Below, one piece after another: positions 28,937-60,441 of a DNA stretch of 64,000 nucleotides; the first letter of the stretch is position 1; the number at the start of each line of letters is the position of its first letter. Under the pieces are notes generated by a model that saw nothing but the letters and a program-made list of their open reading frames with translations, was not told the DNA's origin and did not search any database. Made by a program: the position numbers and the translations under genes. Source of the stretch: Octopus vulgaris (taxonomy: Eukaryota); assembly GCA_951406725.2 (NCBI GenBank), contig OX597835.1:19902001-19966000 (forward strand). Direction: 5' to 3'.

Positions 28937-29014
28937 ATTGGAAAATTCTATAAGTGGCTGAAGATTGCTCGACATTTTAAAACTGATGTAATACATAATA
29001 AAACACATTGTACC
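28937..29014 (+). mobile_element. Partial copy of the 39145-39426 hammerhead element
   Basis: ttggaaaattctataagtggCTGAAGAttgctcgacattttaaaactg matches ~39288-39335; the GAAA half is deleted or degraded. Confidence 0.8.
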
Positions 29015-29527
29015 GAACGCGAGGGAATGCAACTCTCGAAGCAAGCCTATTAAAACTAGATTCAGCTGCATATCATATGATTTCATAATTAGTACACAAA
29101 ATGCATCTTTTCAATCGTCAATGCAAGCATAATCTAGACACATAAAAATGAACGTAAAATCAACATACCAGACGATCACCAAATGTATCCAGCATAGTAC
29201 ATAGAATTGTTCACACATATGGAAAAGGCGAGCTTTTCGTATTGCGTCTCGATACACGTGTTCATTCACATGTTTATATTTGCCACATTTTATGGACACA
29301 AAAGGGTTTATATATATATATATATATATATATATATCCAAACTGACCACTTCCTAAACCCACATTTTCACACCTACACATACACACACGCACACGTGAA
29401 GATCACGCATATACAAAATCTCTCATACACACTCACGCGCCTCTTCATTTGGGGATCCCCACTACTTTATCATCTCCCCTTCTCCCTAACACTCCTGTGT
29501 GATCCTTCTGTCCGACATTCACCAAGA

Positions 29528-29722
29528 TTGATCGCTAGCCACTACACATTCATTAATCTCTCTCTTTGTTTCTTTCTGTACTGATTTCTGTGGAAGGGCG
29601 TAGCCTCGAAACGTTTAATATTTTTTTACATCCCGGGGCATTATACTTATGCATCTGTTTGTTGTCTACACCACCCATCCTCGTCTTTTGTTTTATTTGT
29701 GAATTCTTCCAATATAAAAATG
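29528..29722 (+). mobile_element. Short PLE-type repeat with degenerate hammerhead-like motif (29584-29620)
   Basis: Collinear with 54862-55042 (gatcg.tagccactacac...ctgtggaagggcgtagcctcgaaacgt...cgtcttttgtt). Confidence 0.7.
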
Positions 29723-31807
29723 TATATATATATATATATATATATATATATATATATATATATATATATATGTATGTGTGTGTGTGTGTGTATATGTGTG
29801 TGTGAGTATGTATGTATATATCTATACTAATGATTATGCAATAAATGCTTATATATGTATATATATATATATATATGTACATATATATCGATATATATTG
29901 ATATATGTATCTATCTCTCTCTCTCTCTATATATATATATATGCATACACACACACACACACATATATATATATATATATATTGATATATAGAGAATTAA
30001 AATACACGCATATATATATATATATATATATATATATATATATATATATATATATAGGTATAGTTATATGCACACATCATATACCTACTCTATATGAATA
30101 TATATGTGTATACATACGCATACATATTAATTGTGAAATCATAGGATAGGATAAATACCGCGAACCATAATAGAGTTGTTACACGTTGCATAAGTAGATT
30201 GTACATTCATATATTAAAAAGGAAAACCTTATAGACACGTATGTCTTTCAAAAGATATCGAATTTCATGGAAAGACTAGCAGAAATATAATAATAAAAAA
30301 ATATATATAATAAAGTTACTAATCCACACTTTTATACCTAGGTGAATGTGTATACATCCAACAGATTTCTTCGAGAAATAAAATATAGTCAACAAAATAA
30401 TAAAGAAAAGGAATCTATTGGTATGAAGAAACTGCTTTCCTGTAGGGAAGTGCAACTGAACAAGAAACGTATTCCATCTTTAGGAATGAAGATCACAGTC
30501 TCTATTTTCAAATGCACACATACCTATATGCATATGGTGTGCGTATATATATATTTATATATATATATATATATATTTATATATGTACATATATGTATAT
30601 ATATACATATATACAGACATATATAGACATATGTATTTACACATAAACACATATATATATATATATATATATATATATATATATATATATATATATGAAT
30701 GTACATATACATTCATATATATATATATATATATATATATACATATGTCTCTCAGTCTAGCATTCTGTCTATTTCTTCATTTTACATCACTCGGTCTGTG
30801 TTTGTAAATATATATATATATATATATACATGTATGTGTGTGTGTTGTATGTATGTTTATATAAATTCATATGTACGCAATGTATGTATACCCTCCTTCA
30901 ATACACAGACAAGTGAATAATCATTGATTGGCAGCCATTGTAGGAACCTTCAAGGAAGATACTGAGTTACCGCAAAGGAATAGAATTTGAATAGTTCAAC
31001 AGTAAAAATATGAAATGCATATATATATATATATATATATATATATATATATATATATATATCCATAAAAATATTTTTTCCTTTAGTCAAAGGAAAGAGA
31101 AATCTGTCGCCCTATACTTAAAATATCTTGAAACGAGTATAACATCCTTCGTTGTACAGCTTCTCAAAGGTACACATTGTTTATTATTATCAGGGTTTTA
31201 CATTTATTCGTACGTTACATAATATAGTGTTTTCAATATATATATTTACTTTCTTTCCTTATATATATATATCCATGCTCCACACTCACACACAGACACA
31301 CATACATACATACACACACACACACACATATAGACATAACGTTCATGCACGTATTCGACTTTATATATTTTCACTAATATATACGAATGTTAACGTTATT
31401 TTTAGCATGAACCGATTTATAGAAGTAACCGGACGTTCTCCTGTAAACGTTTCATTATATCCAGCATCCGGGAGCGTGTGACATAACTTCAATATTTGTT
31501 ATTCCTAATGTTTTCTTTTCTAAGTTCTTGTATCTTCTGGATAAGTTTCATTAATCATATTCAGCGGAAGTCATCTCATTTAACTATCTATGTATGTATC
31601 TGTCTGCCTCTCTATCTGTCTGTCTCTCTGTCTCTCTGCCTCTGTCTCTCTCTCTCTTTGTCTCTCTCGATACATATATATATATATATATATATATATA
31701 TATATATAGTTAATCCAAACAAGAAAACACAAAAAAGACATAGCAACGCGAGGACGTGGAACAAATAAAGTATTATTGGACGCTCAGGAAAGAAGGGAAG
31801 AAGGAGG

Positions 31808-31842
31808 GTTCAACGTTTCGAGCGGAGCTCTTCGTCGGAAAC
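31808..31842 (-). ncRNA. Minimal type-I hammerhead ribozyme-like motif
   Basis: gttt CCGACGA a GAGC tcc GCTC GAAAC GTT gaac; stem I gttt/gaac with one G-U, stem II 4 bp, palindromic ACGT stem III. Confidence 0.65.
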
Positions 31843-31960
31843 ATAGGGGAAGGAAAGAGGTCACATATTGAATATATATATATATATATATGACACACGA
31901 AATGAGGTAAATAATCCTTCGAGCAGACGGTCAGAAGCGACGCCTGCTGGGTTCGACTAC

Positions 31961-32003
31961 TCTGCATTGATAAAGGGCAAATATCATGAAACATGTATGC
32001 AGA
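31961..32003 (+). ncRNA. Hammerhead-like motif with U3-A8 core
   Basis: tctgca TTGATAA agggcaaatatcat GAAA catg TA tgcaga; 6-bp stem I, palindromic ACATGT stem III, stem II eroded. Confidence 0.6.
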
Positions 32004-58180: not shown

Positions 58181-58303
58181 ACACATCCTGCGCAGAACAC
58201 TTTCCATACAATAACCATCAGAGCACCACAACACATACCCAAGGCACACAGAGCTGCGCTCGGTAGTGAAGTGAAAGCACGCTATAAAAATAAAACTACT
58301 GAA
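58181..58303 (+). mobile_element. 3' end of an R4/Dong LINE within (TAA)n
   Basis: HILRRTLSIQ* (compare HILRKILSM* at 21438), then a UTR ending ...ctactgaat and (AAT)n. Confidence 0.75.
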
Positions 58304-58429
58304 TATGAATAATAATAATAATTATAAAATATTATAAAAATTATAACAGCAAAAATAGCAGCATCAGCAGCACCAACAACAGCAACAACAATAACAACAT
58401 AAACAACAACTACAAAAACAACAACAATG

Positions 58430-58780
58430 ACTGACTGGGAGCAATTTCAGGATTGCCTGAATGGGGAAGTAATAGGCAATGGATGGCTAGAGGAAGAAGC
58501 GTACTCTTCATGAAATACAATAGCAAGGTAATACAGCTAGCAATTGTAGACCAATCGCTTGCTTGCTATTAGTGTGGAAAGTGTTAAAAGGATCGCTTTC
58601 ACAAAGCATTTACAAGCCCACTGACAGCCAGAATTTGCTGCCAGAAGAACAGAAATGTTGCAAGATGATGGCTAGAGGAACGCATGATCTATTAAATATA
58701 GACATATAGACAATTCTAAATGAAGTGAAATCTATAAAGAAAATTCTAACAAGAGCAGGGATAGGTTATAACAAAGTTTT
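58430..58780 (+). mobile_element. Degenerate R4/Dong RT N-terminal fragment
   Basis: WMARGRSVLFMK...NTASNCRPIACLLLVWKVL...NLLPEEQKCCK..RGTHDLLNID...EVKSIKKIL...IGYNKVF (NYRPITCL, LLPEEQKGC, WIDYKKAF motifs). Confidence 0.82.
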
Positions 58781-60081
58781 TATTATTATTATTATTATTA
58801 TTATTATTATTATTATTATTATTATTATTATTATTATTATTATTATTATTATTATTATTATTTCATCTTTTCAAAGTCCAGTTGAGCACTGGAAACAATT
58901 TGTTCGATAAACCTCCTCCCCGTAAATTCCAGTCTATAGCAGAAAGGTTTATGTTTTTATGTACGCATTTGTGTGTGTGCGTGTGTGTGTGTGTGTGTGT
59001 GTGTGTGCGAGTGAGTGAGCGTGTAAATATAAATATTTATGTGTGCGTATATATACATATATATATATATATATATATATATATATATACATATGTGTGT
59101 GTGCTAGTGCGCATGCGTAAATTTATTAATTGTTCATATATCACAAGATGACGTGATATTCCGACTCTCCCCTTTAGACGGAAGATTTGTGTTTTTGTCG
59201 TATCGCCTTGTTATAAGACAAAAATATAACAAATACGCCCACACTATCACAATGAGTTCAGTTCTAACTTTACTGTCCGTAATCACGCTACATTTGTACG
59301 AAATCGTGTGTACTTGTGCACTTATGTGTAGCTTTGCACTAACATAACCTGAGTTTTATTATTTTCAATTTTAATTTGTTTGGATCGATAAATGTTTTTT
59401 TCTCTTTTCACAAACGGAAATGGCAGAGAAAGAGATATAAAAAAAAAAGCTAGGCTGAAATGATGTGTTCGCTGAAACGTACTTTGTTTCCTACTGAATG
59501 CATTTCATTACTTTATTTAGCTCCAGGAATTTCGTTCAGTTCAAATCAGATGTGATGGGATTAATTTAAACCTGTTTTATACTAACCACAATATATAATT
59601 TAGGTTTCCATTTTTTTTTTCATTTCCCTTTCCTTCTAGCTTCGAGCCCCCTAGCTGCGACCAAGCTGGAGCCCCATATGAATGTGTTTCCCTTGATGAT
59701 TAAGTCGAACATCACGTTCTCAGCTACGTAGTCATATTGTCGATATTTTTTCCTCGGTGCAGGAGATAGTGACACAACGTGATACGTTTAAAATTAATTC
59801 AGACTCTCTACCATAAGGTCCATAAAGACATATATATATATATATATATATATATATATATATATATATATATATATATAAGGGTGATCAGAAATATTTG
59901 AAATTTCCATTACCAGTGATAGGATTTTTTTAAAAATGTTATACGTTATGGCGGTTTGAAATTTAACTGTCCTCCCTAGCGTGCAAGGAATCCTATGTTG
60001 GATACCTCTTATATGTGTAAATGTACACTGTATTTATATTATACATATATATATATATATATATATATATATATATATATG

Positions 60082-60296
60082 TTAGTTAGTTAGTTAGTTA
60101 GTTAGTTAATTTTGCTCAAAAGCAAATAGCAAGGCCATGTAGGGGGACATGGAGTTAAGTACAGGGTGGTGTTATGTAAAGATATATATATATATATATT
60201 TATATATATAGTTCAGGCCAATTGAGGTCAAGGGAGGCTTATAACAAAGTGGTCGTCGGCATCTTCACCATCTCGTCTGGCAGCTTGTTCCACGGA
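60082..60296 (-). mobile_element. 3' end of a CR1-clade LINE with (TAAC)n tail
   Basis: Minus strand PWNKLPDEMVKMPTTTLL*ASLD (WNxLP motif) followed by (ctaa)n. Confidence 0.78.
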
Positions 60297-60400
60297 TATA
60301 TATATATATATATATATATAATATATATATATATATATATATATATATATATATATATTTATATATATAGTTCAATTTGAAAAATCCACCCGAATGGATG

Positions 60401-60441
60401 CAACTTGAAAACTCCACCAGAATGGACGAAAGCGCTAATTT
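60401..60441 (+). ncRNA. Hammerhead-like motif with U3-A8 core
   Basis: caac TTGAAAA c TCCA ccagaa TGGA c GAAA gcgc TA attt; palindromic AGCGCT; 5' half tandemly duplicated at 60373-60400. Confidence 0.55.

Follow-up and report, generated by a model that had tools for sequence, protein, structure and literature searches.

Minimal type I hammerhead ribozymes have been described in the pseudo-long terminal repeats (pLTRs) of metazoan Penelope-like elements (PLEs), with about 9,000 copies counted in Xenopus (Cervera & De la Pena 2014, PMC4209133); other published counts are more than 6,000 in a coral, 126,247 in axolotl, and 235 Rfam hits in giant squid. In an octopus, 31 recently active Penelope-like families have been listed (PMC13282606), and hammerheads are not mentioned in the portions of that source consulted. 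The window considered here, a stretch of 64,000 nucleotides of the Octopus vulgaris genome (contig OX597835.1, positions 19,902,001 to 19,966,000), had been reported in a first-pass annotation to contain about 20 hammerhead motifs between positions 28,937 and 60,441, and these had been taken to reflect a diverse population of non-autonomous, ribozyme-bearing retroelements. The motifs are real as a set. Judging from their relatives elsewhere in the genome, most of them are very probably the ends of PLEs, and they appear for the most part to derive by truncation from autonomous elements, not to be mini-elements that propagate themselves.

Families of Motifs and Their Coding Parents

Repeat structure in the window was examined by masked self-BLAST, and each motif was compared by BLAST with loci gathered by motif and element searches (an enriched set, designated by L numbers). 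Nineteen of the 20 motifs have homologues, and the 20 sort into about 14 families. Family A comprises four motifs (29584, 33133, 54471, and 54913), families G, B, and H two each, and A2, D, F, C, I, E, J, B2, K, and an orphan at 60401 one each. Since 34310 and 34421 form a single insertion as its inverted halves, as do 39175 and 39304, about 18 events are represented. The features, some of which refer to the reverse transcriptase (RT) and nuclease (EN) of PLEs, are as follows.

28940..28997, plus strand: truncated piece of family H; core present, GAAA half absent
29522..29710, plus strand: family A PLE 3' end; decayed hammerhead 29584-29619; 76% to L108, downstream of RT-EN fragments
31709..31858, minus strand: family A2 end; intact minimal hammerhead 31808-31842 with CCGACGA core, extra A, 4-bp stem II, and CG helix III
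31905..32236, plus strand: family D retrozyme-like unit of ~330-360 bp; canonical-type hammerhead 31961-32003 (U3-A8), stem II broken in the window copy
32955..33110, plus strand: family F PLE 3' end; hammerhead 32958-32999 (U3-A8), helix III palindrome mutated in the window copy
33128..33202, plus strand: family A copy truncated within the core; incomplete hammerhead
33878..33981, plus strand: family G end, inverted 5' piece; mutated hammerhead 33907-33952; parent not found in the loci compared
34192..34637, both strands: family B PLE 3' end with inverted copy; hammerheads 34421-34465 (plus) and 34310-34354 (minus); 87% to L080/L111
39141..39510, both strands: family H inverted pair; hammerheads 39303-39390 (plus) and 39176-39262 (minus, weak stem I); long stem II; parent not found
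43210..43578, plus strand: family C, solo pLTR from a young Hydra-type PLE; hammerhead 43277-43366 intact; 99.5% over 370 nt to a tandem array
46404..46786, minus strand: family I unit of ~380 bp; hammerhead 46587-46656, A9G in the window copy; parent not found; some tandems 427-430 bp apart
47317..47460, plus strand: family E PLE end; hammerhead 47325-47375, core GUGAACA with a natural G3-C8 pair; the window copy has a shortened stem II
47476..47848, minus strand: family J PLE 3' end; hammerhead-like motif 47594-47638, position 9 being C in each of the 5 intact copies parsed; 84% to L160
54440..54599, plus strand: family A PLE 3' end; hammerhead 54471-54508, position 6 C here and U in most copies; 94% to L108
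54626..54861, plus strand: family B2 PLE 3' end; mutated hammerhead 54643-54687; 94% to L104/L112
54860..55043, plus strand: family A PLE 3' end; decayed hammerhead 54913-54950
56426..56500, minus strand: family G end; mutated hammerhead 56455-56500
56792..56833, minus strand: family K; minimal hammerhead with U3-A8 and an extra G; no parent among the loci compared
60401..60440, plus strand: orphan hammerhead-like motif; weak stem I, no homologue among the loci compared; least secure of the 20

Nine of the window copies are damaged relative to their relatives (29584, 31961, 33133, 33911, 39175, 46587, 54643, 54913, and 56458), and two others, 32958 and 47325, carry lesser changes; the majority of the solo copies here are probably inert. 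Stems covary among homologues, in keeping with the earlier statement that stems differ while staying complementary, but in about half of the window copies a stem or core position is broken.

Seven of the families, accounting for 11 of the 20 motifs, are the 3' ends or pLTRs of PLEs that code for RT and a GIY-YIG nuclease. The connection to PLE open reading frames (ORFs) that the first-pass annotation had proposed to look for was thus found, as a coding parent on the same strand, for 7 of the 14 window families. In L108, L039, and L275, family A is located behind EN fragments, at a distance of 640-890 nt, and families B and B2 match DNA behind GIY-YIG frames, at about 600 nt and about 230 nt, respectively. 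In family F, a single intact parse is common to 11 of 16 homologues, and a same-strand GIY-YIG ORF ends upstream in three of 14 other loci (L226, L230, and L232). Family J is found downstream of a GIY-YIG ORF in L160, and family E behind GIY-YIG frames in L307, L308, and L310. For family A2, a PLE ORF lies 2.9 kb away in L110, a link that is only suggestive. Across the gathered loci, a sense hammerhead is present within 1.2 kb of 47 of 74 PLE ORF ends, compared with 11 for antisense hammerheads, in a tally that counts overlapping loci repeatedly. A first look across the genome with the GIY-YIG profile PF01541 gave 6,136 candidates, and many of the 150 that were scored lie in 781-codon frames containing both RT and GIY-YIG. 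The window itself yielded no PLE coding fragment by tblastn or with a profile of 61 proteins. Most of the remaining families are likely ends of other PLEs.

Family C is linked to a young element, its window copy being 99.5% identical to the segment between ORFs in a head-to-tail array (L159/L160, C1:119.51-119.53 Mb). This array consists of four 3,624-bp copies with open frames of 861-899 codons; the 899-codon frame (P0001) contains RT motifs and DKT and has at least 411 homologues at E<=1e-10 among 8,000 scored. From these features, the array would be a very young Hydra-type PLE and a candidate active element. A further young PLE family, which includes many of the GIY-YIG matches in the genome, lies outside the window at L107:3664-6006, where an intact 781-codon RT-GIY-YIG frame, whose start is overlapped by a 333-codon upstream frame, is followed about 900 nt downstream by a U3-A8 hammerhead.

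The anatomy of the insertions is that of PLEs. The motifs sit in repeat ends of 80-450 bp next to (TA)n tracts, with fixed or paired 3' ends that are followed by (TA)n; two 3' ends are seen in families E, F, and I, inverted 5' copies are present, and the 5' ends of family A are ragged, indicating variable truncation. The adjacency to (TA)n noted in the first-pass annotation is borne out, since at least six TA units occur within 250 nt on the 3' side of 16 of 20 motifs, compared with 37% of random positions. Tandem units, inverted 5'-truncated copies, two 3' ends, and microsatellite adjacency, all features of PLE insertion, are seen among these families.

Core Variants and Family E

The core residues are canonical (A6, A9, and either C3-G8 or U3-A8) in families B, C, F, H, I, K, A2, G, and D. 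They depart from this state at position 6 in family A and by C9 in J, U3-G8 in B2, and G3-C8 in E. A 26-mer spanning the family E core has 1,696 exact occurrences, and the reversed control has none. When loci were considered that had not been fetched by core sequence, 28 of 35 copies had G3-C8 with U4-G5-A6 intact, one had G3-C8 with C4, and six had G3-G8. In family E contigs from four runs and four organisms, no other letter reaches 5% at position 3 or 8, although at 80% likeness this result is biased toward the reference; the two most frequent changes in the stems of those contigs keep G-U pairs. The protein of the family E parent is about 50% identical to that of the family J parent, in which the core pair is C3-G8. 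By minimum free energy (MFE), the window's own copy of family E prefers another fold.

G3-G8 was considered as an evolutionary intermediate and rejected, because five of the six rows that have it fall in one small clade among the G3-C8 copies; G3-G8 is consequently more likely derived, to the extent that a weak, unrooted tree with two of the rows from one locus can indicate. The family E parent was absent among 50 loci selected by core and 10 larger stretches and was located through the 5' extension of copies. A 30-codon frame in the family E tail was also considered as the start of the parent ORF and is unsupported: no long frame was present among 150 of 15,156 candidates scored, and in none of 18 fetched loci does the frame run on into PLE protein. 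The same fixed 5' end is found in most copies of family E, but 18 of 93 rows extend past it, and three loci reach GIY-YIG frames. In the long copies (L147, L178, L250, L251, and L308), this usual 5' end follows a branch-point-like, pyrimidine-rich stretch ending in CAG; it may mark either the start of transcription or a splice acceptor.

The swapped pair of family E is predicted to preserve RNA cleavage. If the G3-C8 family does cleave, the natural 3-8 covariation series would be complete, and search descriptors would need widening. A literature search (hammerhead with octopus or cephalopod; G3-C8, C3G/G8C) found neither a published natural G3-C8 core nor these families; since it reached few subscription papers, the absence of a published G3-C8 is weak evidence of novelty. 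A term search of PMC11014351 returned nothing relevant. It is possible, although doubtful when all parts are taken together, that this genome holds a quarter-million motifs in dozens of PLE and retrozyme families that are invisible to Rfam, with one PLE lineage having the first natural active G3-C8 core (otherwise a laboratory rescue mutant) and a sister lineage having C3-G8, and that these, with the U6 and C9 families, form a natural panel on whether PLEs need self-cleavage.

Role of the Hammerhead

Published work on PLEs suggests how such copies might arise. In this model, an element protein would nick AT-rich DNA (Frangieh 2024, PMC11167929), and reverse transcription would start from either of two sites that lie 100-250 nt behind the hammerhead, so that the two internal starts would generate the tail and the short stubs. 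Reverse transcription would usually halt early or switch strand, leaving short stubs that bear a hammerhead, and uncleaved RNA would be the main template. Both sides of the cleavage site are kept in nearly every copy here, suggesting that the RNA serving as template had probably not been cleaved, or had been re-joined. Within the parent RNA, the motif is predicted to cleave weakly, either as a dimer formed through the helix III palindrome or with the element protein, and so to trim multimeric transcripts (PMC4209133, PMC11167929). We consider catalytic activity in intact parent RNAs to be rather probable.

The covariation that the first-pass annotation anticipated is seen in family H. Among seven homologues, both-sided changes occur at 13 of 24 pairs, a level reached by none of 500 shuffles and compared with 2-5 in slid controls, and these double changes cover each of the six columns of stem I as well as a substitution in helix III that leaves its palindrome intact; because most rows were selected by a scorer that gives credit for pairing, and because the rows are related by descent, this is support to which no probability can be attached. 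That restriction is one of several points that weigh against PLE ends with a functional fold. No coding parent was present in the gathered loci for A2, G, H, I, K, or the 60401 orphan, and family D is retrozyme-like rather than linked to a PLE. MFE folds of nine single motifs are mostly unremarkable (z -0.2 to -2.9), MFE folding being a poor test for such motifs. In family A, position 6 is U or C, with one U6 30-mer present in 2,608 exact copies and A6 in only one of 19 unselected copies; a natural A6C variant has been reported to have low activity (Perreault 2011, PMC3088659). Copies of family J have spread with a C9 core, and the G3-G8 subgroup of family E, six of 93 rows, has also spread. 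Given that these abundant groups break the core rules, spread seems not to need a perfect core.

These results have a second explanation, in which the motifs are relics that lack a catalytic role even in the parents, and the fold is a protein-binding or promoter signal or is merely inherited. Such an explanation is compatible with an origin from PLEs and competes on function only. The high-copy U6 and C9 families and the G3-G8 subgroup are what it would predict, as is the finding that ribozyme mutants still inserted in vitro, with no reads ending at the cut site (Frangieh 2024, PMC11167929). However, the 3-8 pair is kept Watson-Crick in three ways (C-G, U-A, and G-C), and helix III retains its palindrome where both sides have changed, both of which are expected from selection on the catalytic fold. 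Furthermore, protein-assisted cleavage has been demonstrated (Frangieh 2024, PMC11167929). We therefore regard a purely relic state as unlikely and retain the view that intact parents probably cleave. The presence of young, intact parents, such as the 99.5% tandem array, beside successful families with broken cores makes the role of the hammerhead in PLEs directly testable.

Retrozyme-Like Repeats

The diversity that was originally claimed is evident, both in the approximately 14 families of the window and in the 49 clusters formed by 192 distinct motifs in the gathered loci. The description of the motifs as non-autonomous, ribozyme-bearing retroelements applies at most to a minority, since seven families appear to be 5'-truncated or inverted ends of coding elements; it fits the repeat at 31961. 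This repeat, family D, has 2349 first-look candidates genome-wide and tandem copies 361 bp apart. On C1 at 20.0 Mb, an array at L037:3075-4560 with a minus-strand pair at ~2300-2670 contains five plus two tandem repeats of 353-359 bp, each with a canonical type I hammerhead, and these seven copies resemble a non-LTR retrozyme (a retrozyme without long terminal repeats).

It can be argued that most of the motifs are self-propagating retrozymes of this kind, whose short RNAs self-cleave, circularise, and are re-inserted in trans by the PLE protein. The unit size, canonical-type hammerhead, and tandems of family D, the ~380-bp unit of family I with its fixed 5' end and tandems, the L037 array, and the fixed 5' end of most family E copies are all consistent with this idea. 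Nevertheless, seven families continue 5' into coding PLEs, truncation at the 5' side is ragged in family A, the fixed end of family E is passed by the longer copies described above, and solo copies show no permutation about the cleavage site. As a general account, it is thus quite improbable, and truncated PLE ends remain the preferred reading.

Reality and Density of the Motifs

The window is AT-rich, with 22.5% masked as short tandem repeats, and belongs to a genome of 2.8 Gb in 227 contigs. A core-like heptamer, stem II, GAAA, and UH are present at all 20 coordinates and strands that had been listed, but few of the motifs pass strict descriptors. The descriptor given in the first-pass annotation itself passes only 32958, together with one match outside the region at 18094. 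A canonical CUGANGA descriptor has no match in the window; allowing an optional extra nucleotide after A9 passes two of the 20, compared with 0.12 matches per shuffle. The Rfam model Hammerhead_1 (RF00163), which had been suggested as a check, gives no match at the gathering score in the window or in five further loci, and in the whole genome gives at least six matches (73 of 263,217 candidates scored). An Rfam scan of the window by E-value was set aside, as the matches listed (150 of 563) were simple-repeat matches, nearly all to microRNA models.

A graded type I scorer, written after the motifs had been seen, was therefore compared with 20 block-dinucleotide shuffles. At a score of at least 17, there are 11 window matches, all among the 20 motifs, compared with a shuffle mean of 0.35 and none in the reversed sequence. 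At 15 or more, the excess over shuffles that had been expected is also found, with 22 matches against a mean of 2.95; 17 of these are listed motifs, and the other three (29584, 33133, and 56458) have scores like those of shuffled sequence and can be identified only as decayed family members. Against circularity, the unchanged scorer was applied to 400 kb from 27 contigs, taken as 40 stretches of 10 kb each at round coordinates, where it gave 43 matches at 17 or more, compared with 3-5 in each of five shuffles and 4 in the reversed sequence. A blind scanner, which gave no credit for the identity of positions 3 and 8, N17, or helix III palindromy, found 20 distinct matches in 484 kb compared with a shuffle mean of 2.7. 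A Watson-Crick 3-8 pair is present in 13 of these 20 and a palindromic helix III in 11, compared with 0 of 27 shuffled matches for the latter; the palindrome is also found in 32 of the 49 cluster representatives, which were chosen by a scorer that rewards it. Chance matching of a loose descriptor in AT-rich, repeat-rich DNA would account for the 0 to 2 motifs passing strict descriptors, the Rfam result, and the three motifs that score like shuffles, but is refuted for the set, with a probability close to nil, by the roughly ten-fold out-of-sample excess, the enrichment of unscored features in the blind test, and the homologues of 19 motifs, although it may hold for 60401.

One additional hammerhead-like parse, absent from the earlier list, lies at 29066-29126 on the minus strand (score 16.2); it has no homologue among the loci compared and may be due to chance.

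Extrapolated from the 400 kb as an excess of ~1 per 10 kb, without a direct count, the genome would contain 2.8x10^5 motifs, or ~2.3x10^5 if the seven matches of the single L037 tandem array are omitted. Because arbitrary 10-kb stretches are also rich in motifs, the cluster is not a local phenomenon, and the window is not special. As a whole, it lies within expectation at the genome rate (P(>=11 in 64 kb)=0.09). All 11 strong matches fall in the last 35 kb (P(>=11)=0.002, for a stretch chosen after the fact), so that the motif-bearing region is a mild hot spot only. The first 29 kb (1-28900) has no motif scoring at least 17 (P about 0.045 at the genome rate), indicating that the motifs are patchy. 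The estimate of 2-3x10^5 exceeds the counts in the papers cited, and standard annotation misses such motifs.

Other Features of the Window

Immediately upstream of the truncated piece of family H is an 83-bp palindrome (89%) at 28770-28852. An abundant repeat resembling a short interspersed element (SINE) occurs as tandem units of 184 bp at 9005-9926, 35874-36289, and 37638-38047; this tRNA-like SINE is one that we take to be octopod. An open frame at 49667-50071 (plus strand) matches Pfam DnaJ_C (E 8e-11) and is possibly a retrocopy or an exon. A 178-codon frame at 20902-21435 (plus strand) looks by eye like the C-terminal end of a non-LTR retrotransposon and has no Pfam hit.

Comparison with Known Systems

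The motifs represent new families of PLE-associated minimal hammerheads, together with at least one retrozyme-like repeat, within a phenomenon that is already known; in this respect, the basic finding is ordinary. Like the metazoan pLTR hammerheads (Cervera & De la Pena 2014, PMC4209133), they have type I topology with a short helix I and a palindromic or absent helix III, an extra nucleotide after A9 in some families, and C3-G8 or U3-A8 cores, and they occur behind RT-EN ORFs, mostly as solo copies or as opposite-strand pairs 100-700 bp apart. They differ in the G3-C8 of family E, the U6 or C6 of A, and the C9 of J, none of which appears in the part of the published alignment considered. In addition, the extra nucleotide or G10.1-C11.1 is missing from several of the present families, and the estimated 2-3x10^5 copies contrast with the ~9,000 of Xenopus. 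In overall anatomy, the inverted 5' copy, the tail, and TA targeting are those of PLEs (Craig 2021, 10.1101/2021.04.23.441226), and the insertions are consistent with the two internal RT starts and AT-rich targets of Frangieh 2024 (PMC11167929).

The family C parent is likened by its features to the Hydra clade of PLEs (Craig 2021). It has a single ORF with RT followed by a C-terminal nuclease-like region, DKT in place of DKG, a hammerhead, and TA-flanked solo copies. DKT is also the commonest such motif among the 61 proteins scanned. Hydra clade elements are generally <3 kb, whereas the unit here is 3,624 bp; furthermore, the CxCX5C linker of that clade is not evident by eye in the translation, and Pfam gives no hit for the protein. 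Family D and the L037 array resemble non-LTR retrozymes (Cervera & De la Pena 2020, PMC7229834; Li 2026, 10.64898/2026.07.22.740005) in their non-coding units of 330-360 bp, 6-bp helix I, 4-bp helix II, and tandem arrangement. The window copy of family D differs in being a solo monomer with a broken stem II.

Finally, the core of family E has the same swapped 3-8 pair as an engineered C3G/G8C double mutant (Frangieh 2024, PMC11167929; PMC3884650). There, the swap is a laboratory rescue mutant with partial activity, whereas here G3-C8 is the majority natural state of a repeat family.

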